A stretch of 56,290 nt of DNA from a virus (taxonomy: Duplodnaviria > Caudoviricetes), in the IMG/VR virus record IMGVR_UViG_3300020469_003527, positions 1-56,290 of that record. One strand, 5' to 3'. Positions 2,169 through 54,315 of the stretch are shown here, one piece after another. The notes beneath the pieces were generated by a model. The model did no database searches. It saw nothing but the letters and a program-made list of their open reading frames with translations, and had not been told where the DNA came from. Positions within the stretch are counted from its first letter, which is position 1, and every line of letters starts with the position of its first letter. A program made the position numbers and the translations under genes.

Positions 2169-3473
2169 TCAAGTCATAAACTTTTGTAAAACATATCCTA
2201 TATATTCTATTTGCTCTGGTGTAATTACAGGACTTGTACCATGAAAGTATGTATGTGTCATGGTGTACGTTGCTACAGGAAAATTGTTCTTAGCATCTTC
2301 AGGATTCATTAAATGCGAATACGCAGGCTGTAGCATTATATTACCTGCAAAATAAGGTCTTGTTTGAATCTTATGGTCTTCAAAGTAATTTACTAAATCA
2401 GTTCTAGTAAATGGAGCATCTTCACGAATCGTTATAGGAAAAGCAAACCACGATGGATTTGACAAGGCTCTCGGTCTAGGCAAATGGAAAAATTGTTCAT
2501 ACTTTTCATACATCGAGAAAAGAAGTCGATAATTTCTTCGTCTGAGTTCGTGAATTTTATCGAGCCTTTCCAATTGCACTAGACCAATCGCACCCTGTAA
2601 ATCTATAGGTTTTAAATTATAACCTATTTCATCGTAAACATACTTATGATCGAATACTTCTCCTGTCATTGTGGGAATCCATTCTGAAAATCTTTTTTTG
2701 CATGTTCCATTTTTTAGCACGTTAGCTTTTGGTCCTACACAATAACACCCTCTTCCCCATTCTCTAAATGACCTAACAACAATTTCTAATTGTTCAGATT
2801 CGCACGTTACAAATCCACCTTCACCCATAGTCATATGATGAGCAGGATAAAAAGAACATGATGCCATAGAACCAAAACTTCCTAATGATTTACCATCATA
2901 AGTTGACCCTAAGGCATCACAACAATCTTCTAATAAAACTAAATCGTATTTCTTTACTAGTGCCATTACATCATTCATGTTCGGAGGATTGCCTAATACA
3001 TGAGCGAATGTAATAACTTTAATATCATGTTCTTTAATTAAATCTTCAGCTTTAGTTAAATCTAAATTTAGAGTTTCTAATTCAATATCTAAAAACACAG
3101 GCTCAAATCCTACTTGAATTGTAGGATTAAGTGTTGTTGGAAAACCTGCAATCGGCATAAGAACTTTTGTGCCTTTTGGAAAGTTCGTGTATCGTTTTGA
3201 TGTTAACGCTGACATCATTAGTAAGTTTGAACTTGACCCAGAGTTTGTTAAAACTCCATGTTTTCTTTCCATTTGTTTTGGGAATTTGCTTTCAAATCTT
3301 ATACACGCTTTACCCATGACAAGCCAACCATCTAACAAAGATTCAATTGCCGCCATGTACTCTTCTTCAAAAAAGTATGGTCCTGCGTAGTGAACTAAAT
3401 CTTCACCAGCTTTCCATTCATGATTTTTCTTTAATATATTTTTTCTTACTATATCTAATAAATTTGAATTCAT
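2169..3473 (-). CDS. rfbH: CDP-4-keto-6-deoxyglucose 3-dehydratase E1 (RfbH/DdhC/AscC)
   Basis: DegT/DnrJ fold, NSGSSSNLL, EDCCDALGS, SFYPAHH (His replacing Lys), WGRGCYC, YDEIGYNLK. Confidence 0.9.
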   Translation of the reverse strand: MNSNLLDIVRKNILKKNHEWKAGEDLVHYAGPYFFEEEYMAAIESLLDGWLVMGKACIRFESKFPKQMERKHGVLTNSGSSSNLLMMSALTSKRYTNFPKGTKVLMPIAGFPTTLNPTIQVGFEPVFLDIELETLNLDLTKAEDLIKEHDIKVITFAHVLGNPPNMNDVMALVKKYDLVLLEDCCDALGSTYDGKSLGSFGSMASCSFYPAHHMTMGEGGFVTCESEQLEIVVRSFREWGRGCYCVGPKANVLKNGTCKKRFSEWIPTMTGEVFDHKYVYDEIGYNLKPIDLQGAIGLVQLERLDKIHELRRRNYRLLFSMYEKYEQFFHLPRPRALSNPSWFAFPITIREDAPFTRTDLVNYFEDHKIQTRPYFAGNIMLQPAYSHLMNPEDAKNNFPVATYTMTHTYFHGTSPVITPEQIEYIGYVLQKFMT

Positions 3474-4264
3474 TAAAAATATCCTATATTATCTCTTGGA
3501 AACCAAACATCACCATGTCCATGTGGAGTTGTCATGTACTCTGACTGATAATCTTTTCTTATCTCATATCTTAAATCTTTACCAAGACCTATAGCTATTG
3601 CTAGAGCAGAACTTTGATTACCTAAAAACATCTCACACCCATTTATGTATCTCGCTAATTCTAATAAATCATTTGTTCTTTGATATCTTATATCACATTT
3701 AAATTCATCACAGAAATCTGTATGTTCTTGTTCTGTTCCTACAAAAAAACAATCATCAGATATAAACTTTTCATAAACTTTTTTAGAATCTCCTGTTTCT
3801 CCATGATGATGCCTAGAGGTTCTGTTTATACAAATTTTTTCAGGCTGATAGATAGGATCAATATTGTTTAACCATGGAAGTCTAATCAAAGCATTGCTGA
3901 TTTTTTCATCATGTATATTTAAGTTTTGAGTAAGAGCATAACATTCTGTTTGATTACCTCTCCATCTATCTCCCATTAAATGAAATCTATAATGATTTTC
4001 AAAATCAACGTCAATAGACTGGTCTTTATAAACATCAACATCATGGAGATAATCTTGTGCTTTTAATAAAGGTACTAACATGTCATAATCTTTTTGTGTA
4101 TATCTTCCTGTTCCAGGACCTGCATCAGTCCAGCGTAAAACTTCTTTACAAAAATAATTTAAGTAGTTCAACTTTATGTACATGTTACCGCCACCTAAAA
4201 GTTTGACTACACAAAGACTATAAATTGTATCACCGAATGTTCCAAAATGAGAAAAATTTTTCAT
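3473..4264 (-). CDS. Putative glycosyltransferase (GT9/heptosyltransferase-like)
   Basis: GTFGDTI N-terminal motif and LLELARYINGCEMFLGNQSSALAIA C-terminal motif; sugar cluster context. Confidence 0.6.
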   Translation of the reverse strand: MKNFSHFGTFGDTIYSLCVVKLLGGGNMYIKLNYLNYFCKEVLRWTDAGPGTGRYTQKDYDMLVPLLKAQDYLHDVDVYKDQSIDVDFENHYRFHLMGDRWRGNQTECYALTQNLNIHDEKISNALIRLPWLNNIDPIYQPEKICINRTSRHHHGETGDSKKVYEKFISDDCFFVGTEQEHTDFCDEFKCDIRYQRTNDLLELARYINGCEMFLGNQSSALAIAIGLGKDLRYEIRKDYQSEYMTTPHGHGDVWFPRDNIGYF

Positions 4265-4331
4265 TTTACCAAAGGGCTACTAAAAATACAAGTGCTATAG
4301 ACATTAAAAATATATAAAGATAAATTTTCAT

Positions 4332-4994
4332 TTATTCCACCATAAATTTTTTGTACTCATGATAAAGGGCAATTCTACTTTCTAAATTTATTCCTGGCCA
4401 ATGAATTAGAAAATCACCGTGCTTCCAATTTCCATCATGCCCTAATTTATCAACGTGAGGAGGAGGGCAATCAGGATATAAATTATAATTATAAGAATTA
4501 AATGTTCTCTGAGGAACATATCTCATGATAGGAGAATATTGAGTAGCGTGGTCAATCATTGCTTGTTGTTCTGCCCAATTGTCATTTTTGTATTTGTCTA
4601 GTTGGTCGCAAATAAAATTTATATAGTTTACGCCTGCTTCAGAATTTTTTATCAAAAAACTATCAGCATTTATATCTCTATAATCTTTAGATATAATCAA
4701 GTGTGCGTTTTCATCAGCATGTTCTTTAATGATATCTTCAAGTTTGATTGTCATGTTTGTTATCATTGAATCACAACCAGTAAACCATACCCAATCAATA
4801 TCTGAATGTGCAGTAAATATTTCTAAGATATAAAATAGTTTTTTAAATCCATGGGGAACATCATCATTAGCATATATCTTACAAAGTGGCTCATAGCCAT
4901 GTCTTTGTGCGTATACTCTTTTATTATCTGTCCATGTGTGATTACCTAACTCACAATAACTATAGTCATAAGAATTAGCAATACCAATTTTCAT
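4332..4994 (-). CDS. Glycosyltransferase, GT34 (GMA12/MNN10-like)
   Basis: NKRVYAQRHGY, WVWFTGCDSMITN, EQQAM, GDFLIHWPG. Confidence 0.75.
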   Translation of the reverse strand: MKIGIANSYDYSYCELGNHTWTDNKRVYAQRHGYEPLCKIYANDDVPHGFKKLFYILEIFTAHSDIDWVWFTGCDSMITNMTIKLEDIIKEHADENAHLIISKDYRDINADSFLIKNSEAGVNYINFICDQLDKYKNDNWAEQQAMIDHATQYSPIMRYVPQRTFNSYNYNLYPDCPPPHVDKLGHDGNWKHGDFLIHWPGINLESRIALYHEYKKFMVE

Positions 4995-4995
4995 A

Positions 4996-5580
4996 TTAAA
5001 CCTTTTGTAAAATTATCTCAATTGCACAGTCTCCGAAAGAATGATATGTTTGATCAAATCTTTCACGACCATATCTGAATGTTGCATCTAATAACTCTAT
5101 CTTACATATTTTAATATTTTCTTGTGTAGAAAGCAAGTCAAAAACATTAATTGATGAGTTTTTATTCCATGATTCTTTTTTATTGATTGTGAATGTGCAT
5201 TTGTGGTCGCCATTAAATGTGCTAGGAAAAACTCCTTGTTCATATAAATCTTCATCAGGAATTACAATAACTAAATGTCCATTCTTTTTTGTAACTCTTA
5301 TCCAATTTTTTAATCCTGTATGAGCATCATGCAAATGCTCTAAACAATGACTTGAATGAACAAAATCGTAAGACTCGTCTTTTGCTGTTTTCATAAATTG
5401 TGCATCACCATCAGGCAAATCCCATGATTTGATAGAACTTATCATAGGAAAAAATTCTTTATACTTGTCTAGGGAATCTTCGCCTGACCCAATATCTATA
5501 CCGTCACCTACAAAATATCTAGTCGCAAATCTGTGGTCATGAAATCGTCTTAATACACATTTACCAGTTTCATCTGACAT
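4996..5580 (-). CDS. Class I SAM-dependent methyltransferase
   Basis: GIDIGSG, YDFVHSSHCLEH; start moved to MSDET (5580) behind a GGAG SD. Confidence 0.8.
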   Translation of the reverse strand: MSDETGKCVLRRFHDHRFATRYFVGDGIDIGSGEDSLDKYKEFFPMISSIKSWDLPDGDAQFMKTAKDESYDFVHSSHCLEHLHDAHTGLKNWIRVTKKNGHLVIVIPDEDLYEQGVFPSTFNGDHKCTFTINKKESWNKNSSINVFDLLSTQENIKICKIELLDATFRYGRERFDQTYHSFGDCAIEIILQKV

Positions 5581-5590
5581 ACTATCTCCA

Positions 5591-6271
5591 TTATGTTTTT
5601 TGTAAATATAACTCGTCAAATAACTTTCTATAAGATATAAAGTCTTTTATATAATCATCTCTCTTTTTTGTGAAAACTTGTGCATTGCCTTCTTGTACTG
5701 CAATTATTATAACTAATTCCGTAATTGGAATCTTTGTAATCTCCTCATACATTACAGCATAGGCTGAACATTGCATGAAATAATTTTGAATCCAATGTTC
5801 TTTCTTTTCTTTTGTTGAAGTTTTAAAATCAATAACTGAAAGTTTATTATCATACTCTGCAATACAATCAACTCTGCCTGCAACTCTCAAATGATGAGAA
5901 TAAAGAGGAACTTCAAGTGCATGTATGTTAGTAATTTTGTTATCTAGTATAGATTTAATTTTGTAAAACATACCTAAATCATTTACATTACAACCTTGTT
6001 TATAATACATTTCATTGTTTAGATATTTTTCACAAAGGTTATGCACTCTAGTTCCTCTTGCAGATGCTTGAGTAGAAATTTTATTAGCTTTTTCTTCGCC
6101 AACTCTTTTACGCCAGTCCATTATAGCTTTTTTACTATGCAATCCTGTAACTGTAGTAACTGATGGATATTTTTCACCCATAGGAGTGACGTAATATCTT
6201 TTATCATTTACAATTTCTGACTCTAAATCATCATATTCTAAGTCAACTCCTACATGATAAAAATTTTGCAT
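5591..6271 (-). CDS. PD-(D/E)XK exonuclease typical of T4-like phages
   Basis: YPSVTT, RGTRVH, GRVDCI...IDFKTS, YFMQCSAY; adjacent to phoH. Confidence 0.85.
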   Translation of the reverse strand: MQNFYHVGVDLEYDDLESEIVNDKRYYVTPMGEKYPSVTTVTGLHSKKAIMDWRKRVGEEKANKISTQASARGTRVHNLCEKYLNNEMYYKQGCNVNDLGMFYKIKSILDNKITNIHALEVPLYSHHLRVAGRVDCIAEYDNKLSVIDFKTSTKEKKEHWIQNYFMQCSAYAVMYEEITKIPITELVIIIAVQEGNAQVFTKKRDDYIKDFISYRKLFDELYLQKT

Positions 6272-13376: not shown

Positions 13377-13895
13377 GTGATTGATCCAGTTACAGCTTTG
13401 GCTTTAGCTTCTGCCACGTTTAATGGCGTAAAAAAAGCCGTACAAGTGGGAAAAGAAGTCTCTGAAATATACACAGAGTTGTCTAAGTGGGCAGGTCATG
13501 TAAGTGATGTTTATGAACATATCAATCAAAATGGAGAAACTAAGAAACCTGGATTATTTCAAAAAATAACTTTTAGTAAAAGTGCAACTGCTGAGGCATT
13601 TGATAGTTTTGTAGCTAAAAGAAAAATTAAAGAAATGGAAGATGAAATTAGGCATATGTTTACATGGGGTGCGTTACACCATCTTGGCCTTGAGGGCTAT
13701 CGGGAATTTATTGGTATGCGGCGAAAAATAAAAGCTGACCGTGAGAAATTAGTATATGACCAATTAAGAAGAAAAAAGAAATTTATTCAAACAATAAAAA
13801 TTTCATTGATAGCAATTTTATCATTATCACTAACAATATGGTTTATGAATTTTGCAATAACATTAATTTTAGATGCACCTGGAATGAAAGGATAA
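13377..13895 (+). CDS. Coiled-coil protein with C-terminal TM
   Basis: MIDPVTALALA start, GTG after GGGGG SD, C-terminal hydrophobic helix. Confidence 0.7.
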   Translation: MIDPVTALALASATFNGVKKAVQVGKEVSEIYTELSKWAGHVSDVYEHINQNGETKKPGLFQKITFSKSATAEAFDSFVAKRKIKEMEDEIRHMFTWGALHHLGLEGYREFIGMRRKIKADREKLVYDQLRRKKKFIQTIKISLIAILSLSLTIWFMNFAITLILDAPGMKG

Positions 13896-13899
13896 GTAA

Positions 13900-14268
13900 A
13901 TGACACAGAAAAGATTTGAAAGTAAATCAAATTTTAATAAATACGACAAAGATGGTGACGGAATTATTACTGATGAAGAATTGTCAAATATGGAAGCAAT
14001 TGAGGAAATTGAAAGATTGAATAGAAAACAAAAACATCAAAGAATGATGGCTTGGTATGCTTTAGTTGGAATGATAAGTTATCCAGCGTGTATTATATTT
14101 TGTGAGTTTGTAGGATTAAATCAGTCTGCTAAATTACTTGCAGATTTGGCGCCTACATATTTCATAGCGGCCGCTGGTATTGCCGGTGCATTTATGGGAA
14201 TTTCTGCTTGGTCTGAATCAAAAAGAAATTCATCAACAAGTAGTAAACCTATAGTAAAAAGGCCATGA
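13900..14268 (+). CDS. EF-hand-containing 2-TM membrane protein, holin candidate
   Basis: DKDGDGIITDEE EF-hand loop; two TM; basic C-terminus. Confidence 0.55.
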   Translation: MTQKRFESKSNFNKYDKDGDGIITDEELSNMEAIEEIERLNRKQKHQRMMAWYALVGMISYPACIIFCEFVGLNQSAKLLADLAPTYFIAAAGIAGAFMGISAWSESKRNSSTSSKPIVKRP

Positions 14269-14450
14269 TACCAGGTAAACAGCAACAAATATTTAAAGTA
14301 TACGATACTTGGGGAACAATATTATTGACAACTTCTTCAAGATTTTTAGCATCATGGTATCAAAACATATATAATAAAAGACAGCGTAAACGTAACACAA
14401 AAATAAGTATTTACGGAGATGATAATTTTAGTGATAAAAAAATAATTTAA
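14265..14450 (+). CDS. Hypothetical protein
   Basis: ATGA overlap with previous ORF. Confidence 0.45.
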   Translation: MIPGKQQQIFKVYDTWGTILLTTSSRFLASWYQNIYNKRQRKRNTKISIYGDDNFSDKKII

Positions 14451-14465
14451 AAGGAGATTTTATCT

Positions 14466-14576
14466 ATGGAGTTAATTATAATAGGAGTATTAGTTTTAGC
14501 ACTATGCTCAATTTTTTCCTATGCAGGCTCAAGAGCCTTAACAGTTATTGAAAAATTCAATGAACGCAATAATTAG
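14466..14576 (+). CDS. 36-aa single-TM peptide
   Basis: Manual: MELIIIGVLVLALCSIFSYAGSRALTVIEKFNERNN with AAGGAG SD. Confidence 0.55.
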   Translation: MELIIIGVLVLALCSIFSYAGSRALTVIEKFNERNN

Positions 14577-14853
14577 ATTTGTAATATCAATATCAGTATT
14601 ATTTGCAATACTGATAGTCGGTTTTACAACAACTACAGGATTACATGCTAGAATTCCATCAAGTGAATTTTATGTTGCCCCAAACAAAGACATATATGAA
14701 TGCAGACTTCAATGGATAAATGAAAATTTACCACCTAACTTAATGTGTTTATATAAGTGTGAAGACACACATAGTACATTTGAGTGGTATGAAAAATCTT
14801 GGGACCAAAAAGGTTGTAAACTCAAAACAAGAGTTTATAAATCACAGGTGTGA
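14548..14853 (+). CDS. Secreted/periplasmic Cys-containing protein
   Basis: N-terminal hydrophobic segment; 4 Cys (C..CLYKC..C); start possibly 14560. Confidence 0.55.
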   Translation: MKNSMNAIIRFVISISVLFAILIVGFTTTTGLHARIPSSEFYVAPNKDIYECRLQWINENLPPNLMCLYKCEDTHSTFEWYEKSWDQKGCKLKTRVYKSQV

Positions 14854-14856
14854 ATC

Positions 14857-15075
14857 GTGAATCAAATATTTTGGGCGTGTGTGGTAATGTTGGCATCAGA
14901 GCCATACTATGTTATGGGCACCATGCAGACAAAAGCCCAATGTGAATATATTGCTTCTACTTATATGCCACCTAGCATTGAACATAGTTCAATCGAATGT
15001 ATTCCAGTTAATGTAACAAATCGTGATGAAATCATTAAACAGATAAAGGCTCTCAAGGCTTTGAGGTTGCTTTAG
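14857..15075 (+). CDS. Small hypothetical protein
   Basis: TKAQCE...ECIP Cys pattern. Confidence 0.5.
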   Translation: MNQIFWACVVMLASEPYYVMGTMQTKAQCEYIASTYMPPSIEHSSIECIPVNVTNRDEIIKQIKALKALRLL

Positions 15076-15205
15076 GTTTTCTCTTTCTAGTTTGTCTTCT
15101 TTTATTCATTACAGGTGCTTTTTTCTTCTGTACAGGTTTTCCTGTATTATCTTCAAACAGCACTAAAGTTTTTCTTAAAAAATTTGCGATTGCTTTCTTA
15201 ATCAT
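15053..15205 (-). CDS. 50-aa basic protein downstream of endolysin
   Basis: Manual: MIKKAIANFLRKTLVLFED...RKRKPKATSKP. Confidence 0.45.
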   Translation of the reverse strand: MIKKAIANFLRKTLVLFEDNTGKPVQKKKAPVMNKRRQTRKRKPKATSKP

Positions 15206-15208
15206 TTA

Positions 15209-15838
15209 CTAATCCTTTATAACTTCTATTGCGTGGTTATAGTGTTTTATTCTATCTTCTAGTCCTATATATCCACCATTTATCTTTCTAGTCATAGTCT
15301 TTAAATCTTCCTCGTCAGCGTACTTATTTAAATTTGTTGTCTTCCAATACCAACAAGCAGAGTGTATCGCATAATATACTTCACATAATAACTCTGGATT
15401 TTCGACTAATGTATTATCACTAAAAAGATGCTCAGAACAATTCGTATAATTATTTTTTCCAGTAATCTGAATTATTCCTCTTCCTCTATACTTCCAACCT
15501 TCGCCTGATTCTGTATCTCCATTTCCCATTCTATTTGCATATATTACATTTGCAATTTTTTCAGGCTGTCTATGATACTCTTCTGCATCTCTTCCTGCAT
15601 TTTTAAAATACTTTGGAAATACTGCATTGAGTGCCTTAGCTGAATAGTTTAGATTTTCATTGAGTCTTGTAAACCCCATAGATTCGTGACCGCATTGTGC
15701 TATGAAGGCGGCCACTCTTTCTTTGGTGTTAATTTCCCAACCTGGTAATATTTCATTTAGCTGATTATACCAGTCATCTTTATCTTTTACCTTAGGTAAA
15801 AGTTCATGAACTACTTCTTCTGTTAAGAAATTCATCAA
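15209..15838 (-). CDS. Glycoside hydrolase family 19 endolysin
   Basis: AAFIAQCGHES, ENLNYS, YRGRGIIQITGKNNY, TRKINGG. Confidence 0.9.
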   Translation of the reverse strand: MMNFLTEEVVHELLPKVKDKDDWYNQLNEILPGWEINTKERVAAFIAQCGHESMGFTRLNENLNYSAKALNAVFPKYFKNAGRDAEEYHRQPEKIANVIYANRMGNGDTESGEGWKYRGRGIIQITGKNNYTNCSEHLFSDNTLVENPELLCEVYYAIHSACWYWKTTNLNKYADEEDLKTMTRKINGGYIGLEDRIKHYNHAIEVIKD

Positions 15839-15846
15839 TACCTCTC

Positions 15847-17043
15847 TTATTTTTTGTAGTTAACAGCTTCTTCTGACCCAGAAGTTGCACTACCTTCTGT
15901 GTAAGAATGTTTTCCTGTGCCATCTAATGCTCCACTTTTAACGATAGTATATTCGCTTCGTTGCTCTTCGCCATCAAATAATTTCTCAAGTATTTCTCTA
16001 ACACCTGCGGCATATCGTGCCTGTGCTGATAATGAAGTACCTGAAGTGTGAGGAGTCATTCCATGATTAGGCATAGTTCTCCAAACATGGTCGTTTGGTG
16101 CTGGTTGTGGAAACCAAACATCTCCAGCATAACCACTTAGCTGACCAGATTCAAGTGCTTTAGCGATTGCTTCTCTATCACATATTTTACCTCTTGCAGT
16201 ATTTACGATGTAAGCACCTTTTTTCATTTTTGAAATCATTGCTTCATCAAATAAATTTTCTGTTTCTGGGTGAAGAGGACAATTGATTGTAACAACATCA
16301 CATACTGAGACTAAAGATTCTACTGATTCGTGATGAACAAGATTTAATTCAGCTTCAACTTCATCTGACAATTTATGTTTATCGAAATAATGCAACTCTA
16401 CATCAAACGGTTTTAATTTTCTAAGTGCATCTAAACCTATTCTACCTGCGGCAACTGTTCCAACTTTCATACCTTCTAAATCGTAAGATTTAGATACAGC
16501 ATCAGCAATATTCCAACCGCCTTCTTTTACAATTTGATGTTGTGTGTGATAGTCTCTTACTAAAGATAATATCATCATCACAATATGTTCTGCGACCGAC
16601 CTTGAATTACAATAAGTAACTTCCATTACGTCTACACCATAATGCATTGCGGCTTGTAAATCGACATGGTCTGAACCTATACCTGCGGTAATCGCCATTT
16701 TCAAATTAGGTGCAGAGTCAATCTTTTGTCTAGTAAGATAATATGGCCAAAATGGTTGAGATATAACAACGTCAGCATCAACTAACTCTTTATCTGCTGT
16801 ACAACCTTCTCCATCTTTATCTGAAGTAACTACTAACTCATGACCATTTTCTTCTAAAAATTTTCTAAGCCCTAACTCACCTGATACACAACCTAGTAAC
16901 TCTCCAGGTTTGAAATCAACTGCTTTAGGTGACGGTAGTGTTTGACCGTCAGGATATTTTTCTATTACAGGTAAATCTTGTAATGCATATTCACTAGGCA
17001 TACCATTACTTGGGTCATCATACAAAACACACAATACTTTCAT
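15847..17043 (-). CDS. fdh: NAD-dependent formate dehydrogenase (metal-independent)
   Basis: KVLCVLYDDP, SQPFWP, GIGSDH, YCNS, AAGRIG, YFDKH, NTARG, DVWFPQP, TPHTSG. Confidence 0.97.
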   Translation of the reverse strand: MKVLCVLYDDPSNGMPSEYALQDLPVIEKYPDGQTLPSPKAVDFKPGELLGCVSGELGLRKFLEENGHELVVTSDKDGEGCTADKELVDADVVISQPFWPYYLTRQKIDSAPNLKMAITAGIGSDHVDLQAAMHYGVDVMEVTYCNSRSVAEHIVMMILSLVRDYHTQHQIVKEGGWNIADAVSKSYDLEGMKVGTVAAGRIGLDALRKLKPFDVELHYFDKHKLSDEVEAELNLVHHESVESLVSVCDVVTINCPLHPETENLFDEAMISKMKKGAYIVNTARGKICDREAIAKALESGQLSGYAGDVWFPQPAPNDHVWRTMPNHGMTPHTSGTSLSAQARYAAGVREILEKLFDGEEQRSEYTIVKSGALDGTGKHSYTEGSATSGSEEAVNYKK

Positions 17044-17057
17044 ATATTTCCTTTCTA

Positions 17058-17213
17058 CTATTTAAATCCATCTAAATATTCTCTGACATTAGACAAATCT
17101 GTAAAATGCACATCTTCATCTATCTTTTCAGCTAAAGCCATATTCAAGTCTATATAGAACGCTAAAAGTTCTATAGTACTCATACTATTGATAATTTCAT
17201 TTCTGTCTATCAT
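17058..17213 (-). CDS. 51-aa hypothetical protein
   Basis: Manual: MIDRNEIINSMSTIELLAFY...YLDGFK; ATGA overlap with upstream ORF. Confidence 0.45.
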   Translation of the reverse strand: MIDRNEIINSMSTIELLAFYIDLNMALAEKIDEDVHFTDLSNVREYLDGFK

Positions 17214-17947
17214 TCTACCACTTCCTTTCCAATAGGTGCTATCATTCCTTGAACACCCATTCTTTTTGCAAACTTAATTTTTTGAGCATCTAAAAATTGA
17301 TATAGGGAATGTTCTATATCAATGTATCCACGATTATTTATACGCTCAATCATATTTGCATATATTCTTTCGTATGTATCTGAAACATAGGAAAGTAGAT
17401 TTGCATCAAAACTCCATAGCCTAGACATATACTGAAGTCTAACTCCATTCGTAAGTTCTGGTGGGAATTGTGATGTGAAAGGACCTTTTATTACTATTTT
17501 ATCTTTTGCTTCTTCATGAAGATTTATATCAAATTCTTCAGTTAATTTATACCGTGAACTTAATTTAAATATTCTAGTATACTTTTTATGTTGAGGCTCT
17601 GATAATAATTTTTTAAAGTAGTCAGTAAAAACTAAAACTTCTATACAGTTTTTTACAATATCCCAATTTTCTATTTTTTGTATTTCTTTTACTTGAGAAT
17701 CTTGTGTGTAATCCATTACGCAATCAGAATATTTTTCAAATCTTTTTAATGTCTCTTCATTTATTGTTTCTTGCCCAGAATCTAAAATAGCTATATCAGA
17801 GTCAGGACAATATTTTCGTATTGACTCATATGTTTCCATTGATTGTTGTATTCTTTCAGTTGAATCATATACTCCGAATCTAGTATGAACTGCTGATGAA
17901 GTTACAAAAAGGTATTTGTTTTCACTTTTTAGTAGTTTTAGTAGCAT
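17210..17947 (-). CDS. Hypothetical protein, possible glycan-modifying enzyme
   Basis: FVTSSAV, ILDSG, IFKLSSRY, IDIEHSLY; weak GT-A-like pattern. Confidence 0.5.
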   Translation of the reverse strand: MLLKLLKSENKYLFVTSSAVHTRFGVYDSTERIQQSMETYESIRKYCPDSDIAILDSGQETINEETLKRFEKYSDCVMDYTQDSQVKEIQKIENWDIVKNCIEVLVFTDYFKKLLSEPQHKKYTRIFKLSSRYKLTEEFDINLHEEAKDKIVIKGPFTSQFPPELTNGVRLQYMSRLWSFDANLLSYVSDTYERIYANMIERINNRGYIDIEHSLYQFLDAQKIKFAKRMGVQGMIAPIGKEVVE

Positions 17948-18521
17948 TATCTATCTTTCCTTTTTTACTAAGTCTTTTCAATACTTCGGAAGAGTCCATC
18001 CAGATATCTTTATTTTCAAGTATAGAATCAATTTCATCTTTTGTTAAAAAATCTTTATATATTGATGCGAATAATTTTTCTGACCACTTTCTCTCATGAA
18101 GAATATTATCATACATTTCTCCACCTTTACCTAAAATCAAGCCTGAATAATTATGAAACATAAACATTGAATGCTCTGATATTTCAAATATATCTGACGA
18201 TAAAAATATTATAGTGGCGGCAGACATACACACACCTTCTACAGATGCAATAATTTTACTTTTACATTCTGCCATACATCTCATAAACTGTATAGCAGTA
18301 AATAAATCTCCGCCATAACTATTAATATGAAATCTGATTACATCAGTTTCACTTGAGTTTCTTATAATATCAAACCAATCAATATATTCAGAAGATTCTC
18401 CTATTTCACCCGACAAATAAAAAGTATGAAAATTGCCTAAACTTTTATGCTTATAAGCATTTTTATGTTTTTTATCTTCAAGAACATCTTCCTCAGTTTC
18501 GCTACACGTTTTCATAACCAT
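17922..18521 (-). CDS. ClpP-family serine protease
   Basis: INSYGG, GVCMSAAT (Ser), FMFHN (His), DIWM. Confidence 0.85.
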   Translation of the reverse strand: MVMKTCSETEEDVLEDKKHKNAYKHKSLGNFHTFYLSGEIGESSEYIDWFDIIRNSSETDVIRFHINSYGGDLFTAIQFMRCMAECKSKIIASVEGVCMSAATIIFLSSDIFEISEHSMFMFHNYSGLILGKGGEMYDNILHERKWSEKLFASIYKDFLTKDEIDSILENKDIWMDSSEVLKRLSKKGKIDNATKTTKK

Positions 18522-19496: not shown

Positions 19497-20477
19497 CTAT
19501 GCGGCCTTTCCCCATACATTATCCCATGTACCTGAAACAGAACCTTTAGCATAATCTGTTGCTCTATTTTCAAAAAAGTTTGTGTGTATAGGAGCATTGA
19601 TCATTTCTTCAACCCAAGGTAAAGGATTCTTTTTAACTTTATGAATACCTTTCATACCCATAGAAATCAATCTTCTATCACAAATATATCTTATATATTG
19701 TTTTACATCTTGTGCGTTTAAATCTTTCATTTCACCCATACTAAACGCTAAATCAATAAATTTATCTTCAAGTTCTGTCATTTTTGTTGCTATTGTATAA
19801 ATTTTACCTTTTAACGTATCATTCCATATAGAACGATTCTCTTCAACAAAGGTCCTAAATAATTTTATCATGGCTTCTGAATGCATTGTTTCGTCAACAA
19901 TTGACCATGTTACAATTTGACCCATACCTTTCATCATTCCATGTCTAGGAAAATTCAATAGCATTATGAAAGACGAAAATAATTGCATACCTTCAGTAAA
20001 CGCACTAAACGCCGCTATGTGAGTTGCAGTAGATTCTAATGTGCTATTCTTTGAAGATATTTCTACTAGATAATCGTGTTTTTCACTCATCTCTTCATAC
20101 TCTAGAAATTCATTGTAAGTTTTCTCAGGCATACCTAGAGTTTCAATTAGATGCGAATATGCGGCAATATGTAATGCCTCTCTTGCGGCAAATCCAGCTA
20201 ACATCATACGAACTTCAGGTTGAGGAAAATGTGGAAGATAGTTGTTTATGTAACCGCCTGCAACATCAACATCACCTTGAGTAAAAAATCTAAAAATGTT
20301 TGTTAAAAAATGCTTCTCAGGTATTGATAGTTTGTTTTTCCAATCTTTTACATCTTCTAACATTGGAACTTCTGTGTGCAACCAATGAGCCTGTTCATGC
20401 TTTAGCCAATAATCATATGCCCAAGGATAGTTAAAAGGTTTAAAGTGATTTCTCTCGTCTTGAAGTTTTAATTTCAT
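19497..20477 (-). CDS. nrdB: Ribonucleotide reductase class I beta subunit
   Basis: FFTQGD, EALHIAAY (radical Tyr), EGMQLFSSF, DETMH, NFFE. Confidence 0.97.
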   Translation of the reverse strand: MKLKLQDERNHFKPFNYPWAYDYWLKHEQAHWLHTEVPMLEDVKDWKNKLSIPEKHFLTNIFRFFTQGDVDVAGGYINNYLPHFPQPEVRMMLAGFAAREALHIAAYSHLIETLGMPEKTYNEFLEYEEMSEKHDYLVEISSKNSTLESTATHIAAFSAFTEGMQLFSSFIMLLNFPRHGMMKGMGQIVTWSIVDETMHSEAMIKLFRTFVEENRSIWNDTLKGKIYTIATKMTELEDKFIDLAFSMGEMKDLNAQDVKQYIRYICDRRLISMGMKGIHKVKKNPLPWVEEMINAPIHTNFFENRATDYAKGSVSGTWDNVWGKAA

Positions 20478-20485
20478 TTTTGCTC

Positions 20486-21262
20486 CTAAAAAAATTGTTC
20501 TAAAGAATTTTCAGATTTGTAATTACGAATATTTTTTGCGTTATGTTTTACTTCATCATAATTTAATGAGAACGGCATAATTTCTGTAGTTTTATATTTT
20601 TCCTGTCCAGGTTTTAAAATTTTCCACACCAAATCTTTATCTTTTGGATAAGAATTTGTCCAAGTTTCTGTGCTTGTTTTCAAAAGTTTTTTCCATCTTT
20701 TCTGAGTGGGTATAATATATCTAAATTGTTTACCTTTAACTCTTGATAAACCTAACTCAATTCTTTTATCAAAATCGGGTCTACTTCCACAAATTAACCC
20801 ATCTTTTTTTTCTTGTATAGTTCTTGGGTGAATTTTTTCTCCAGATTTTGTAACGTATGTATCAGTCCAAATATAGCCGCCATAAAACATATTGAATGCC
20901 TGATACACATATCCAACTTTTCCTACTAATCCATCTGCCCATGTAAATAAAAATTTTACATCAGGCTTATTTTGCTTCAACCACTTTAATGCACATGATA
21001 ACATTTGAGTTTCAGAATTTCTAGGCATACTATCGTCCATACACATTTTGCCTATTTCAAAATAATCTTTTGTATCTAACTGAGGAAATAATTTTTGTAT
21101 CGTATGTTTGGGTCTAGTTCCCCAACCAAAAGTGATTATTCCTACTAACTTTCCATCAACAAAATATCCACAGAAATGCTTTGTAGCTGTGGGCATAACA
21201 GGAGAGTAGTGTTTATCATAAACAAAATTAGATGCATTTATCTTATGTATTTCTTTTATCAT
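20486..21262 (-). CDS. Mu Mom-like GNAT DNA-modification protein
   Basis: EIGKMCMDDSMPRNSETQ...FTWADGLVGKVGYVYQAFN matches the Mom pattern R/K-M...MPRNSE...FAD...G.VYQA.N. Confidence 0.75.
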   Translation of the reverse strand: MIKEIHKINASNFVYDKHYSPVMPTATKHFCGYFVDGKLVGIITFGWGTRPKHTIQKLFPQLDTKDYFEIGKMCMDDSMPRNSETQMLSCALKWLKQNKPDVKFLFTWADGLVGKVGYVYQAFNMFYGGYIWTDTYVTKSGEKIHPRTIQEKKDGLICGSRPDFDKRIELGLSRVKGKQFRYIIPTQKRWKKLLKTSTETWTNSYPKDKDLVWKILKPGQEKYKTTEIMPFSLNYDEVKHNAKNIRNYKSENSLEQFF

Positions 21263-21264: not shown

Positions 21265-23286
21265 TTAGCCTTCACAGGCTAAACATTCTGTATCATCTGA
21301 ACTGGACTCGTTATTTAGATAATCCATCATTTCTGTATACCCGCCTATATACTCTCCATTTAGATATATTTGAGGTACAGATTTTACTGCACGACCTGTA
21401 ACTTCGGCGGCAGTTTTGTTAATTTTATTTAAATCTACATAATCAAAAATTATCCCTCTACGAGTAAGTTCTTCCTTTGCTCTTTTACAAAATCCACATG
21501 TAGGTGTTCCATATACAATATTTCTAAACTTTGAATCTCCCTCAACAATGGCTTTCATATCTAATTCTTTAATAACTTCTCTCTCTAATCTTTTTGCTAC
21601 TTTATCAGCTTTACCTATTTTTTCTGACCTACAGTAATATAGTGTTTTAAGACCTTCTTTCCATGCTTGAAAATGTATAGCATGAATATATGCTACGTCA
21701 GAAGTTGGTCTAAAGAATAAATTGAGACTTTGTGCTTGGTCTATGTATTTCTGCCTATCAGCGGCATGTTGTACAATCCACCTTTGGTCGATTTCCATTG
21801 AAGTTTTGAAAACTTCTTTAATTGAATCATTGAAGGATTGAATGTGTTGAATTGAACCATCATTTGCGATAATCGAACTCCATAATTCATTATATTCTTT
21901 TTCATCATTTGTCGCCTCTTTTACAAGTTTATCTAAAAATTTATTTTTATTCAAATGGGCGCCAGACAAAGTATCTTGTCTGTACGCATTCGCTCTATAA
22001 GGTTCTATACTAGGAGATGTATTGCCCATGATAATACTGCTACTGGCATTGGGTGCAATAGCCATAAGATGAGAAAACCTTCGACCAGTACCAACAGCAT
22101 CAGGAGCCTCTCCTCTAAGTTTGCCAAGTTCAAGATTTGCTTCATCTAAACTTCTCCTTATGTGCCTGAATATTTCTACGTTTATAGACCTTGCTTGTGT
22201 AGATTCCCACGATAGCATATTTTTTTGTAGATAAGCATGATAACCAAGACTACCTATTCCAATTGACCTTTCTTGTATAGCACTATATTTTGCCCTTGAT
22301 ACACTATCAGGGGCATTGTCTATAAAATATTGTAAAACATTATCTAACATTTCTGCCACATCTCTTAAAAACAATGGATTATCTTTCCATTCATCATAGT
22401 ATTCTAAATTCAAAGATGATAAACAACACACGGCTGTTCTATTTTTATCTGTAGGTAAAATAATTTCTGAACAAAGATTTGACTGCTTTATGCTAAGACC
22501 TTTTTTCTTTTGAAACTCAGGCATCATTCTATTGCTCGTATCTATGAAATGAAGATATGGTTCTCCAGTTTGCATACGAATCTCTAGAATTCTTTGCCAT
22601 AATTCTTTAGCCGATACAATCTCTTTTACTGTACTTGTATTAGGGTCTTTCAATTCCCAATCATCATTTGCATTTTCATCTAACATACACTTTTCAATAA
22701 TTTGCATAAATGAATCTGGTATGTTTATTCCATGATGTAAATTTTGAGTTCTCATGTTAGGGTCGCCAGTAGGTTTACGCATTTCTAAAAATAACATAAT
22801 GTCTGGGTGAGATATATCTAGATATGTTGCGTATGAACCTCTTCTTGTTCTTCCTTGTCTATACGCTAAACAGGCCGCATCATAAGTTCTTAAATGAGGC
22901 ATAACTCCTGTAGACTTTTCATCTGCTGAACGAATACCTACACCTATACCTACTCCACCTCCTAACATTGATAACCAATTTACTTCAGCTAAACATTCTA
23001 TGAGTCCCTCTGCACTATCATGTAGATAAGGGAGAAAACAAGAAATAGGCAAGCCACGCTTACTACGCCCAAAAGATAAAATAGGTGTAGAATAAGATAA
23101 CCAATGCCTACTGCTGTAATCATACAAACGCTGTGCATGATCGCTATCACTTCCAAAACTTTTTGAAACATAAGCAAACCTCTCTTGTGGTGATATTTCA
23201 TCATCTCGCATATAAGATTCTGCTAATCTTTTCATTCCTAGTTCATCAAATAATTTATCTCTACTACAATCAATCTTAATTTCCAT
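21265..23286 (-). CDS. nrdA: Ribonucleotide reductase class I alpha subunit with internal glutaredoxin domain
   Basis: PISCF, SNLCSE, IAPNASSS, KTLYYCR, Grx CGFC/SVPQI/YIGG, terminal CLACEG; no ATP cone evident. Confidence 0.97.
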   Translation of the reverse strand: MEIKIDCSRDKLFDELGMKRLAESYMRDDEISPQERFAYVSKSFGSDSDHAQRLYDYSSRHWLSYSTPILSFGRSKRGLPISCFLPYLHDSAEGLIECLAEVNWLSMLGGGVGIGVGIRSADEKSTGVMPHLRTYDAACLAYRQGRTRRGSYATYLDISHPDIMLFLEMRKPTGDPNMRTQNLHHGINIPDSFMQIIEKCMLDENANDDWELKDPNTSTVKEIVSAKELWQRILEIRMQTGEPYLHFIDTSNRMMPEFQKKKGLSIKQSNLCSEIILPTDKNRTAVCCLSSLNLEYYDEWKDNPLFLRDVAEMLDNVLQYFIDNAPDSVSRAKYSAIQERSIGIGSLGYHAYLQKNMLSWESTQARSINVEIFRHIRRSLDEANLELGKLRGEAPDAVGTGRRFSHLMAIAPNASSSIIMGNTSPSIEPYRANAYRQDTLSGAHLNKNKFLDKLVKEATNDEKEYNELWSSIIANDGSIQHIQSFNDSIKEVFKTSMEIDQRWIVQHAADRQKYIDQAQSLNLFFRPTSDVAYIHAIHFQAWKEGLKTLYYCRSEKIGKADKVAKRLEREVIKELDMKAIVEGDSKFRNIVYGTPTCGFCKRAKEELTRRGIIFDYVDLNKINKTAAEVTGRAVKSVPQIYLNGEYIGGYTEMMDYLNNESSSDDTECLACEG

Positions 23287-23295: not shown

Positions 23296-23967
23296 TTATT
23301 CTTTAACTAGTGGGAAGACATTAGCAATCACTTCAGCACACGCTTTTGCTAATTCCATATGTTCTTTTTGTGTTCCATTTCCACATCTAACATCTAAATA
23401 ATGCACCCATGACCTAATTGTTCCATTAACGTATAACCTTGATATTGTCAGGCCTTCAGGCAATACTGCTCTTGCTTGTTCCTTTGCTATGTTATTATCT
23501 ATTGCCCACTTGTAGGCATCTCTCGCATGATTTAAAACTACTTCTTGTTTTAACTTCCACTTCATTTGTAAATTTATATCGTTTATAGTTAAACTGTTTT
23601 GTCTATTCTTGGCGTCCTGAAGTCTGGCCTCTCTAAGTACAAAATCGAGTTCCTCAGTTGGGTTGGCATATCTTTGGCTAAATTCCTGAAAGCTAAAACT
23701 TCTGTGTCTGAGTAATTGTCTGGCAATGTCTCTTGTTGTTTCGATTTCAAGGCACGCTGAGACCATTTCAAGCGGCGACCAGTGTTTGTGTTTGATGAGG
23801 TATTTGATGAGTCTTTCAGATGTTTCGGTATTCGTTTGATTGGTGGGATTGCTGACCCTGGCACAAAACGCAATAAGTTCTGAAAGAAGTTTGGATTTGT
23901 CGAAATTGTATCTATCATTATATTCCTCATGTGGTTGTGTATATGAAACTAATTTAACTTTCAACAA
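23296..23967 (-). CDS. thyX: Flavin-dependent thymidylate synthase
   Basis: HWSPLE, RHRSFSFQEFSQRY, KEQARAVLP, TQKEH. Confidence 0.97.
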   Translation of the reverse strand: MLKVKLVSYTQPHEEYNDRYNFDKSKLLSELIAFCARVSNPTNQTNTETSERLIKYLIKHKHWSPLEMVSACLEIETTRDIARQLLRHRSFSFQEFSQRYANPTEELDFVLREARLQDAKNRQNSLTINDINLQMKWKLKQEVVLNHARDAYKWAIDNNIAKEQARAVLPEGLTISRLYVNGTIRSWVHYLDVRCGNGTQKEHMELAKACAEVIANVFPLVKE

Positions 23968-30139: not shown

Positions 30140-33100
30140 TTTTAATCCTTTTTAGCCATTTTAGTAGCGACTGCATACATAACTTGTTTGCCTTTACCAG
30201 GATATCTCTTTTCAAAATCTGCCGCTTTGTCTTTTAAAGACATTACTATTTTTTCTTTTTTATTTTCTTCTCCTGGTGTAAGAGTTCTTTCAGATTTAGT
30301 CTTTCCGCTATCCATTTTATTCAAGTGCTTTTTAATTCTATCAGATTGACCTTTGTGCATTTTTGAAGCACCATCTAATTCACCAGCCATTTTTTCTAAA
30401 TCTAAATCATCTTTTACAATTCTTTTTTTCGCTCTATCAAGACCTGCAAATCTTTTAGATGTATTTACTGTTCCTGTAGAATGTTGTTTCTTCGCAATAT
30501 CTTTCATAGATTTTTTTGCATAACTTTTTGCTAAGTCTTTAGATATCTCGTCTATTTCTTTTTCTTCACAACCAGGTTTTACTTTTTTACGTTGTAAAGG
30601 AGTATTTCCCATATGTTTGTAATGATCAGGTTGACTTCCACGAACTCCAAGATTTACCTCAGTCTGTAAATCGCCTTTAGTTGCTAATTGCAAATCTAAT
30701 ATCTCTCCTTTTTTCCCTGACAATTCAATACCATTAGGAGTATCTTTTACTTTCAAACCAACTTGTTTTGCTAAAGCAATATACGATTGCTTTTGTTTAT
30801 TCGTTTTAAAACCTTTGATGACTCCTTTAGCTTCTTCTAAGTCTACTTCTTCTTTGAGTTTTTTAATTTGAGCATCAGAAAATTTAAATTTAGTTTTCAA
30901 AACTTTTTCTGCATCAGAAACAGACATTCCTCCTAGTAAAGCCTTTTTAGGATTCTTGACAGTATCAATTGCAATTTTCTTTTGATGTTTTTCTCCAACA
31001 CCTTCGTCAAATTTTATCACTTCTTTTACTTGAACACTTTCTACTTGGCCTCTGATTTTCAACAAGTCTGGAGCCTTATACTTATGTTTCATAATAAGTA
31101 TTCCTGATGCCTTAGTAGATACAAAAGGAACATCTGCTTTATATAATTTTTCTAATGCTTTTTTATTGCCTGAAATTGGGTCTAATATCTTATCTAATTT
31201 TTTTAAATTATCAAGACTTACTCTCTTTCCTCTAAGAGGTTCATATTTTTTTTGTAGCAACTTCATTTGAGCATCAGAGAACATTTCATCTACTTGTTCA
31301 ACCTCTTCAGCCCTACCAAGTTGTCTATTCATACTAAGTCTACCTTTAGCTTTGTCAATAGCTAAATCTCTTTTGTTGATTTTACTAGGAGAAGATGCAA
31401 TATCTTTAGAATGATAGTCTGCAACTCTCTTTGATAAATCTTTACCTGCTTTGCTTATATAACTCTTTAGCGTTTTTGATTTAAGTTCATCTACTTGTTC
31501 AGCTTCATCAACTTTAACTGCAAAATGTTGTTTAGTTCTTCCTATTCCTTTAATAAATTTGCCACCAACTTCTTTTGCTTTTTTACGAGCCTCAGCTTCG
31601 GTATCATATAGAAAAAGTTTTCCTTTCTTTTTTGCCTCATCAAGGTCAACTTCTTCTTTGAAGACATAGAATACACGACCAACTTTTCTTACACGACCGC
31701 CCATTTTTTTAGCAAAATTATCTGCTTGTGTTTTATTAGCAAATGTCTTGTCATATACTTCTTTACCCATAACCTTTGCCTCATCAAATTCGACTTCTTC
31801 TTTAAAACTCATTCCCATTTCTTTTCTGAGAGCCTGTATTTCTTTTTGAATTTTCTTTTGTGCAGGTGAATTAGGAACGGCTTTCAATGCTTTATTACCA
31901 AGTTTAAGAAGTTGTACTCTTTGTTCTGGTGTTCCTTTACCTCCAAAATGTTTGTCACTATCGTAGGCGTATTTTTTCCCACGAAAATTGCTTTTAGCTT
32001 CATCAAGTTCAACTTCTTCGTGTTTAGCTTTGTGCATAGTATCTAATTTATTGAAGAATTTTTTCTTTTCTTCAGGCGACAAGTCTCTCAAAGATTTTAT
32101 TCCCATCTTTGCCATGAGGCCTTTTACTTTTTCTTGATAGTCTTCAGAAACTTTTCTACTTGCTTCTATGATACTATCTGTTAATCCGAAATTACTTTTT
32201 GAAAACACGTTTATTCTCCTTAGTCTAAGTCTGAAACTGATTTGCCTTTTTCCCACATTTTACAAGACCAATACTTTGCTTTCCATTTAGGTCCTGGATC
32301 TGTATCGCAACCATGTCTTGCTCTAAAACTTTTTCTTCTTTCTGGGTCATCTCTTTTAATTTCCATATTTGGGTCACCAAAATTAACTTTTACAACTTTA
32401 CCTTTCGGACCCATTGTATATACAGAAAACTTTTTAGGACCTCCAGATGTTCTGAAAGGGTCGTTTAGTTTTACTTTTTTTCCTTGATATTCTGCTTCAG
32501 TTATTTCTTCTTCTTCCTCATATATCTTTTTCGCTCTTTGAGTACGAATATCATTTAACACGTTTAATACTGTATCTGCTGAATATTTTGCAGTTACTAA
32601 ATCAGGATTCTGCCCTGGTGTTTCTCTAGCGTAAGCGATTCTAGAAGCATCAGTTCCTAATTCTACTCGTTCATCAAGTTCCAGTTCTTCTTTCTTACTA
32701 CCTCTTACTTTATCAGCTAAGTCTTTATCAGCTTTGCCCCATGTTCCTTTGCCTTTTGTTATAAAAGAATTAACTCTTGCAAAAGCCCATTGCTGTTGAG
32801 ATGCTCCAGGTCTATGACCTCCTTTCCAAGCGGCCATTCCTCTATTGTAAACTTGTTTTAAAATACTGTAAGATATACCTGATTTTTCAGCTTTTTTAAC
32901 TAGACCTGCAATTTTAGATTCATTCATAATATTATGAAATTCTTGGTCAAACTTCTCTTCTTCAAGCATTTCTTCATAAATTGCTTCGACTTCTTCTTCT
33001 AGTTCGTAATCAAGTTCTAATTCTTCTAAACTTTCTCCAATATCGTCAGAGTTGTTTAAACCTTCAAACTCTAAATAATCTCTTACTGACTCTATATAAT

Positions 33101-53488: not shown

Positions 53489-53914
53489 TTAACCGTATGC
53501 AAAACTTGAACCACAACCACAAGTAGATGTTGCTTGTGGGTTACGAATTACAAAAGTTGACCCCTGTAAATCATCTTTATAATCTATTTCAGCACCCATT
53601 ACATATTGATAACTCATTGCATCAACTACTACATTTGCACCATGTTGATTAACCTTTGTATCATCATCTTCAAGTTTTTCAGCAAATGCAAATCCATATT
53701 GAAATCCAGAACAACCGCCACCTTGAACAAATATTCTTAAGCCAGTCGCATCTTTCTCTTCACTTATCAAAGACTTTATCTTTTTAGCGGCCTCTTTTGT
53801 TACATGAAACGGATCTGGTGCTTTATCAGTTGTACTTGCATCGGCAAAATCTATCAACGCATCAGCATCAGACCTCTCTTCTTTTTTCTTTCTTGATAAT
53901 AATTTACTAAACAT
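53489..53914 (-). CDS. erpA: A-type Fe-S carrier ErpA with N-terminal extension
   Basis: [23 protein letters not shown]. Confidence 0.9.
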
Positions 53915-54315
53915 TATAAAATCTCCTGTTTAACTTCAATCTTTTTTTTCTTGTAATTATCTATTGCAGACCTAACGGCATCTTCAGCTAATATACTACA
54001 ATGTATTTTTACAGGAGGTAAACACAACTCTTTAGCTATCTCTGTATTTTTTATCTCCTCTGCGTGTTCTATGCTTCTACCTTTAATCCATTCTGTAACT
54101 AAACTACTACTTGCAATAGCACTACCACAACCATAAGTTTTAAACTTAGCATCTTCTATGATGCCTTCATCACTAACTTTAATTTGTAATTTCATTACAT
54201 CACCACATGCTGGAGCCCCAACCATTCCAGTTCCAACATTAGGGTCGCTCTTATCCATTGACCCTACATTTCTAGGGTTTTCATAATGGTCTATAACTTT
54301 ATCGCTGTAAGCCAT
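53914..54315 (-). CDS. iscU: Fe-S scaffold IscU
   Basis: [33 protein letters not shown]. Confidence 0.97.

Follow-up and report, generated by a model that had tools for sequence, protein, structure and literature searches.

A formate dehydrogenase gene in T4-like marine myophages: predicted function, viral distribution and accessory status

An intact formate dehydrogenase gene beside a phage endolysin gene

We analyzed a complete IMG/VR virus record (IMGVR_UViG_3300020469_003527; 56,290 bp, linear, CheckV completeness 28%), called the window below. Its minus strand carries an open reading frame (ORF) that a sequence-only reading had taken for a full-length, NAD-selective formate dehydrogenase (FDH) with five named motifs. 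The gene, its leader and the segment that contains them are as follows:

15847..17043, minus strand: NAD+-dependent, metal-independent FDH, 398 amino acids (aa), intact, assigned from family profile, PDB match and residues
17044..17057, minus strand: 14-nt spacer with the FDH ribosome-binding site (RBS; AGGAAA), part of the inserted or deleted segment
15853..17057: segment absent from sibling phages, 1205 bp, comprising FDH and its 14-nt leader, with boundaries on two stop codons (AAATAG / AAATAA)

The ORF begins with ATG, runs for 398 codons with no internal stop, and is preceded by an RBS of the AGGAAA type 5-8 nt upstream of the start. Pfam profiles identified 2-Hacid_dh_C (PF02826; E 8.7e-50) and 2-Hacid_dh (PF00389; E 6.1e-17), and these matches, together with gap-free alignment to solved FDHs, give the protein the two-domain fold of D-2-hydroxyacid dehydrogenases, with a catalytic and an NAD-binding domain. 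The NCBIfam equivalog NF005750 ('NAD-dependent formate dehydrogenase') scored 656.2 bits against a curated cut-off of 329 and was covered from position 3 to 385 of 386. The runner-up NCBIfam family, PGDH, reached 167 bits, which is under its own cut-off, and the ORF fell far under the cut-offs of the remaining dehydrogenase models. In phmmer searches of the PDB, the top matches were 2go1 (E 1e-187) and 2nac (E 4.5e-185), accompanied by 2gug and 2nad; all are NAD-dependent formate dehydrogenases.

Residues 2-393 of the phage protein align to the Pseudomonas sp. 101 enzyme (PseFDH; 2nac) with zero gaps, so that the numbering of the two proteins is the same. All five motifs of the sequence-only reading are present (TYCN146S, NTAR284G, FPQ313PAP, TPH332TSG and HYFD221KH), as are P97, F98, I122, T282, D308 and S334. 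Asp221 is accompanied by the dinucleotide fingerprint A198-A-G200-R-I-G203, which fits the (A/G)xGxxG pattern. The 14 functional residues that we checked are invariant in 46/46 viral and 80/80 cellular copies. We take Asn146, Arg284, His332, Gln313, Ile122 and Pro97-Phe98 to have the substrate and catalytic roles assigned to them in the PseFDH literature, and Asp221 to be the residue that selects NAD+ over NADP+, from which NADH is the predicted product. Enzymes of this family are homodimers that transfer a hydride from formate to NAD+, yielding CO2 and NADH, and use no metal or prosthetic group. Thus, sequence comparison confirms the phage ORF as an intact member of the metal-free NAD+-dependent FDH family (EC 1.17.1.9), with predicted activity.

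The phage protein resembles the Pseudomonas sp. 101 FDH (2nac, 2nad, 2go1, 2gug) in family, length, two-domain build, and catalytic and NAD-binding residues. It differs in being encoded by a phage, in the GC content of its gene (37%), and in having PHTSG in place of PHISG and YFDKH in place of YTDRH. Two other close bacterial homologues, 2gsd and 3fn4, are presumably FDHs of Moraxella sp. C-1.

The gene is part of the phage genome

The genes that immediately surround FDH are:

15209..15838, minus strand: GH19-type endolysin (PF00182, E 3e-9; phrog_181 endolysin, E 2e-79)
17058..17213, minus strand: 51-aa ORF of no known function, directly upstream of FDH, with no PHROG match
17210..17947, minus strand: 245-aa protein of no known function, 96% identical copies of which mark the FDH-less sibling contigs

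The FDH stop codon (15847) lies 8 nt from the TTG start codon of the endolysin gene (15838). The same-strand flanking genes are all of phage type and encode a ClpP-like protease, a RuvC-like resolvase, a Mom-like protein, NrdB, NrdA, ThyX and primase. FDH has a GC content of 36.8%, compared to 31.1% for the rest of the window. The stretch around FDH was present in 20 public runs from 14 studies. We examined the junctions in contigs of three DNA runs (X5, X6 and X8) from three studies, none of them marked as a potential source for the window. The endolysin/FDH junction was bridged with 0 mismatches by contigs of X6 (rec20, 15725-16129) and X8 (rec27, 15698-16074), and the upstream junction, also with 0 mismatches, by contigs of X6 (rec21, 16780-18231), X8 (rec28, 16481-17741) and X5 (rec11, 16780-17123). 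The earlier claim that FDH is phage-encoded and not part of a host flank therefore held, given the phage genes on both sides and the endolysin gene 8 nt away, and the worry about an assembly chimera was settled by mismatch-free contigs from three independent runs spanning the junctions.

Sibling phages lack the gene

Searching with the 245-aa neighbour protein recovered two IMG/VR contigs (L222 and L223) that are 96% identical to the window in this protein. The DNA of these siblings is ≈95% identical to the window from 23941 (L222) or 23010 (L223) down to 17058 and then jumps to 15852. They lack the FDH segment, and nothing else is missing across the joint. Each segment boundary coincides with a stop codon, one belonging to the upstream ORF and the other to FDH; the endolysin RBS is left intact, and in the FDH-less siblings the stop codon of the 51-aa ORF abuts this RBS. 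One of the two is a 144-kb record (G304; CheckV completeness 80%), in which FDH was found nowhere. The FDH-less joint is also seen in an RNA-library run (X17), where a 529-nt contig connects 15847 directly to 17091. Thus, one phage type occurs side by side in FDH+ and FDH- forms, and because siblings with ≈95% identity lack the gene, FDH is accessory cargo that these phages can dispense with.

Depth peaks over FDH in run X17 were considered as a sign of expression and rejected, since they were summed from contigs of other organisms that are at least 90% alike, and contigs cannot show transcription. L222 is also unaligned over window positions 14648-15060, which marks a second variable spot beside the FDH site.

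The phage type and the FDH neighbourhoods of its relatives

The window encodes a T4-type replisome, consisting of a gp43 polymerase, clamp, clamp loader, UvsX, gp41-type helicase and primase. It also encodes a class I ribonucleotide reductase (RNR), ThyX, CobS, PhoH, a Mom-like protein, IscU/IscA, a ClpP-like protease, a RuvC-like resolvase and the endolysin. Homologues of genes of the Pelagibacter phage HTVC008M account for 30/79 window ORFs, in the order in which they occur in the 87-147 kb half of that genome. Core proteins are 49-56% identical to those of HTVC008M (polymerase, 49%), and the cyanophage S-T4 is about as close (polymerase, 55%). The photosynthesis gene psbA was not found in 5/5 large contigs of the FDH-bearing lineages, under conditions in which a control genome gave a signal. 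On these sequence features, we provisionally place the window, as a partial genome, among T4-like marine myophages of the HTVC008M (pelagimyophage) type, with a host that we infer.

Genes of the window that recur in the FDH neighbourhoods of relatives are:

19497..20477, minus strand: NrdB, RNR small subunit; FDH lies directly upstream of nrdB in clade-A relatives
20486..21262: Mom-like DNA-modification gene, between nrdA and nrdB, at the place taken by IscU and FDH in relatives
21265..23286, minus strand: NrdA, RNR large subunit, carrying at its C terminus a glutaredoxin domain (PF00462, residues 590-647)
23296..23967, minus strand: ThyX, flavin-dependent thymidylate synthase
53914..54315, minus strand: IscU/NifU-like Fe-S scaffold (NifU_N, E 1.7e-53), a homologue of which lies immediately upstream of FDH in relatives

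The NrdA of the window is thus fused to its own electron carrier, a glutaredoxin. ThyX is a family of enzymes that consume NAD(P)H.

We read 17 related FDH loci by hand, 15 from IMG/VR and 2 from metagenomes. Four loci of viral clade A (L006, L138, L139 and L010; the clades are described below) share the order primase-ThyX-NrdA(glutaredoxin)-IscU-FDH-NrdB, as judged from Pfam-type domains. The order IscU-FDH-IscA-like occurs in L043 and L044, and in L044 FDH follows nrdA-nrdB-IscA-IscU. In L031 and L036, ssb and FDH are followed by a curli operon, with HTVC008M genes at 58-87% identity, and in L026 FDH is just upstream of primase and of an RNR that is 77% identical to that of HTVC008M; the HTVC008M-type genes of these three loci span 52-87% identity overall. 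FDH adjoins an adenylate-cyclase-like gene and curli genes in L038 and L047, and its contexts are different again in L022, L037, L024, L029 and L014. At least 8 FDH neighbourhoods therefore occur among the 17 hand-read loci and the window, where the order is 51-aa ORF-FDH-endolysin. An automatic count based on the nearest ORFs of at least 50 aa gave 25 neighbour pairs in 46 loci and was set aside as inflated by small spurious ORFs. We conclude that FDH behaves as movable cargo in variable regions of these phage genomes.

The window also has phage genes for IscU and an IscA-type (Fe-S_biosyn) protein at 53489-54315 on the minus strand. IscU adjoins FDH in relatives of both FDH clades, though FDH needs no Fe-S cluster.

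Viral and cellular copies

FDH is encoded at 56 IMG/VR loci with 75-93% protein identity to the window, all of 31-38% GC. None of the 56 has a stop codon within FDH, and 45/56 have one or more other genes in common with the window. The description of FDH as a rare auxiliary gene did not survive this survey and the mention of one such gene in one paper, even though cultured and GenBank phage records yielded none, and the novelty that had been made to depend on the gene being uncommon in phages is lowered to moderate.

A close FDH copy was absent from GenBank/INPHARED phages, in which tblastn gave 39 records, all with <60% identity and 2 covering at least 80% of the query. No cultured phage with this FDH turned up in the collection, which may not show records very close to the window. 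Apart from these two, the records are serA/pdxB-type paralogues and were rejected as FDH. The two, at 47%, are OR845000.1 and OR849882.1, unannotated multi-contig records labelled 'Staphylococcus phage SA 1306/1298 Kay'; they also hold many housekeeping-type genes (ilvB-like) and look like host DNA under phage names.

Metagenomes contained at least 475 FDH relatives and the protein database at least 8000 scored candidates, the best 120 of which are 80-98% identical. From 186 cellular relatives in one-per-species genomes, we kept the best 80, chosen by likeness to the window (L058-L137); these 80 have 78-82% protein identity to it, and 68/80 are labelled Pelagibacteraceae, Pelagibacter, Pelagibacterales or Fonsibacter. 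Their flanks are cellular, 77/80 being without a phage-protein match, and two of these loci had, by Pfam, ABC transporters, MoeA and similar genes as neighbours. In the family of a Pelagibacter genome, FDH scored above the cut-off in 95/301 sampled genomes, many of them incomplete (94/300 when the unpublished genome G073 is left out), so that even among the likely hosts its distribution is patchy. One Pelagibacter-family FDH match (G066:C2:43569-44729) has 7 in-frame stops (3 TGA, 4 TAA) and is an apparent pseudogene, which fits gain and loss of FDH among hosts.

Two viral clades under purifying constraint

A quick tree of all 126 full-length FDH copies and a careful tree of 66 rows, hand-picked from every clade of the first, agree; their root is not known. 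Viral clade A, which comprises the window and L002-L014, has support of 100/100 and a long stem. It groups (99/96) with 8 cellular rows, namely Fonsibacter, a Pelagibacterales metagenome-assembled genome (MAG), four 'Alphaproteobacteria' single-cell genomes, a 'Rickettsiales' MAG and a 'Flavobacteriaceae' MAG. Viral clade B has 31 rows in the full tree and support of 100/97 in the careful tree, and is placed elsewhere, near SAR86/Cellvibrionales rows with weak support. A single viral clade A+B was rejected, being 25.5 log-likelihood units worse (p-AU 0.0059 in an approximately unbiased [AU] test, for a group named only after the tree had been seen). At least two separate transfers of FDH between cells and phages are indicated by the trees, and the phage gene is probably host-derived, with SAR11-like bacteria as the likely donor pool. 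The comparison with bacterial FDHs proposed earlier for identifying donor and host pointed to a SAR11-type donor pool (68/80 Pelagibacter-type labels); this pool, the GC content and the lack of psbA suggest a SAR11 host. The SAR11/Pelagibacteraceae single-subunit NAD-FDHs are like the phage proteins in length and residues, with the 78-82% identity given above for the best 80 of 186; they differ in that they are chromosomal, near ABC transporters and MoeA, and patchy, whereas the phage FDHs form separate long-stemmed clades.

The FDH of one short IMG/VR contig with a viral label (L030; 4529 bp) pairs with a Cellvibrionales MAG (SH-aLRT branch support 98). Its other ORFs match neither the window nor HTVC008M; the contig either belongs to a third lineage of phages or is bacterial DNA filed in the wrong place.

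The ratio of nonsynonymous to synonymous substitution rates (dN/dS; Nei-Gojobori) of the window gene against nine clade-A copies was 0.044-0.101, at dS of ≈0.8-1.3. Median values were 0.080 in clade A (45 pairs) and 0.084 in clade B (55 pairs), with an overall range of 0.04-0.13. These low ratios, together with the invariant functional residues, imply that FDH has been kept working in phages.

Proposed role and alternative explanations

We consider it probable that the gene specifies a working single-subunit, cofactor-free, NAD+-dependent FDH, that it is an auxiliary metabolic gene (AMG) of an HTVC008M-type T4-like marine myophage with a SAR11-like origin, and that it would add NADH derived from host one-carbon (C1) formate. 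SAR11 bacteria oxidize methyl groups via tetrahydrofolate (THF) to formate and then to CO2 for energy, and the SAR11 Ia strains studied have a molybdenum FDH with cofactor-synthesis genes (PMC3160333). Genes for THF-linked oxidation rose in one pelagiphage infection (PMC12753301). During infection, the phage FDH may keep the last step of THF-linked C1 oxidation running, or add it in hosts without the gene, and would act while host gene expression fails. Formate from host C1 metabolism would be converted to CO2 and NADH, which would serve respiration, supply reductant, or both. The reductant may feed ThyX and the glutaredoxin-fused RNR, whose genes are neighbours of FDH in close relatives. No molybdenum cofactor or maturation genes are needed, so that a phage can obtain the function by carrying a single gene. 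The 'methylovorous' host of the sequence-only reading is plausible insofar as the nearest cellular FDHs are mostly from SAR11 and SAR11 oxidizes C1 units via formate (PMC3160333). Its proposed link to deoxynucleoside triphosphate (dNTP) synthesis fared unevenly: FDH lies between nrdA and nrdB beside thyX in close relatives and not in the window, and the evidence is one of neighbourhood. For deoxysugar synthesis, the other use named there, the analysis yielded no evidence, although the window does encode sugar-modification proteins.

Several observations weigh against this interpretation. The enzyme is known here from its gene sequence alone. RNA-library (X17) contigs over FDH are ≈91% alike or come from the FDH-less sibling, and the gene is dispensable in that sibling background. 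The core replication proteins are about equally close to cyanophage S-T4 and HTVC008M, so that a SAR11 host would be an indirect assignment, and the cellular rows that are sister to clade A include 'Alphaproteobacteria', 'Rickettsiales' and 'Flavobacteriaceae' labels. The group in the AU test was defined post hoc, and the cellular sample was selected by likeness to the window. NADH is the product predicted from Asp221, whereas NADPH is the usual donor for ThyX and for thioredoxin/glutaredoxin systems; direct feeding of dNTP synthesis would therefore need a transhydrogenase. Finally, FDH in the window adjoins the endolysin gene, outside the RNR cluster.

Contamination or misassembly, in which a bacterial FDH was stitched into a phage contig, would agree with the GC offset of the gene and with the bacterial source of its closest named proteins. 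It is refuted by the mismatch-free bridging of both junctions in three runs of three studies, and we give it virtually no credence. Moreover, the FDH gene has the same GC offset in SAR11 genomes, the viral FDHs form their own long-stemmed clades, and the 8-nt and 14-nt spacers with their RBSs match phage gene packing. It is very improbable that FDH is a neutral passenger, picked up from a host not long ago and of no use to the phage. Such a passenger might be expected from the ≈95% identical siblings without FDH and from the location in a variable region, with more non-aligned DNA beyond 15060, but dN/dS of 0.04-0.13 across two old viral clades, dS near 1 to the nearest viral relatives, catalytic residues kept in 46/46 viral copies and 0/56 loci with a stop all run counter to it.

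Two further explanations accept a working phage enzyme and change its benefit or its host. The main benefit might be nucleotide synthesis in place of respiratory energy, with removal of formate pulling the THF-linked C1 pathway and reductant passing to ThyX and the glutaredoxin-RNR. The position of FDH between nrdA and nrdB, beside thyX, in 4/17 hand-read loci (L006, L010, L138, L139), its place after nrdA-nrdB-IscA-IscU in L044, and the presence of ThyX and of the NrdA glutaredoxin domain in the window all favour this explanation. We regard it as possible, if doubtful, since the FDHs of the window and most of clade B are elsewhere (beside endolysin, ssb, a curli operon, primase or a clamp-loader-like gene), Asp221 presumably dictates NADH and not NADPH, and neighbourhood within hyperplastic T4-type regions is weak evidence. 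Alternatively, the host could be another streamlined, low-GC marine bacterium, or several, and the SAR11-like FDH would then reflect the donor only. We judge this rather unlikely: HTVC008M genes occur on clade-B contigs with identities reaching 87%, 30/79 window ORFs are collinear with HTVC008M, psbA was found in 0/5 large FDH-lineage contigs with a positive control, and the 31% GC of the window is low like that of the flanks of SAR11 FDH loci (26-33%). Set against these points are core proteins just 49-56% identical to HTVC008M with cyanomyophages equally close, the mixed taxonomy of the rows sister to clade A, the weakly supported position of clade B near SAR86/Cellvibrionales rows, and DNA matches that include Methylophilales phages.

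More tentatively than for the proposed AMG function itself, FDH could be a mobile cassette of one gene, passed among marine myophages during co-infection. The FDH+ and FDH- alleles would then be a balanced polymorphism in one population of ≈95% identity, and one lineage would have wired the cassette into a ThyX-NrdA-IscU-FDH-NrdB operon that makes formate an electron donor for DNA-precursor synthesis; the evidence at hand makes this a doubtful proposition as a whole. Within it, the mix of alleles may be adjusted to the genotype of the host, with FDH in only about one-third of the SAR11-family genomes sampled, or to the supply of C1 compounds and formate, for example with depth.

Relation to known systems

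Zaragoza-Solas et al. (2020, mSystems; PMC7029224) listed a 'formate dehydrogenase' among the genes unique to the deep-water pelagimyophage PMP-MAVG-4. The paper cites the structure of the molybdenum/selenium FDH-H, proposes generation of a proton gradient and leaves the FDH type unstated (PMC7029224). By this description, the PMP-MAVG-4 gene is cargo of a similar kind, and its carrier, an uncultured SAR11 myophage, is a similar kind of phage. Our literature searches found no further paper on a phage NAD-FDH besides PMC7029224. Two other viral genes that came up were rejected as different enzymes: Gp48 of a Citromicrobium phage, which is like the Fdn-N beta subunit (PMC8953757), and fwdH of a digester virus (PMC13394424).

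The phage FDH, which the trees suggest is host-derived, is alike in concept to the reducing-power AMGs of cyanophages, which belong to the same phage family, Kyanoviridae, in that a host-derived enzyme turns host catabolism to reductant. The marine T4-like cyanophage AMGs talC, zwf, gnd and CP12 steer the pentose-phosphate pathway to NADPH for dNTP synthesis. The phage FDH differs from these in pathway (C1 oxidation), predicted cofactor (NADH) and host (presumably a heterotroph).

We conclude that FDH is a genuine, selectively maintained, host-derived auxiliary gene; the enzyme is ordinary, the cargo is recurrent and already in print, and the finding is moderately new. The most useful of the new results are a natural pair of sibling phages with and without FDH, the variety of contexts in which the gene is inserted, and its occurrence in two viral clades that are independent of each other. 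The idea itself had been printed in one sentence, and the advance is one of extent and detail, not of kind. SAR11 is the most abundant heterotroph of the sea, and its C1 oxidation returns methyl-group carbon to CO2. If the phage FDH works, infected cells would keep or gain the last step of C1 oxidation, so that viruses would influence both the turnover of formate and the release of CO2. The natural sibling pair offers a clean test of the worth of an AMG to a phage.

Other features of the window

Around the FDH locus (14900-18000), promoter-like sites (12 versus 14.1 expected) and terminator-like sites (1 versus 1.1 expected) gave no signal. The word TATAAATA, which we take to be the T4-type late-promoter word, had 7 matches versus 12.4 expected, all on the minus strand, and no inference was drawn from them; the match nearest to FDH is ≈290 nt upstream of it, inside the 245-aa ORF. 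A transfer RNA scan of the whole window found none. The ClpP-like gene of the flank is:

17922..18521, minus strand: ClpP-like 'ATP-dependent protease' (phrog_1827, E 8e-59), located in the replication/AMG region with no head genes nearby

Between minus-strand blocks, 13377-15075 forms a small island of plus-strand ORFs without family matches, and a cytidylyltransferase-like protein is encoded at 32220-34235. A sugar-modification-like cluster occupies 383-5619 on the minus strand and encodes a 587-aa protein like thiamine pyrophosphate-dependent acetolactate synthase, a DegT/EryC1-type aminotransferase, a GT34-like glycosyltransferase and a methyltransferase.

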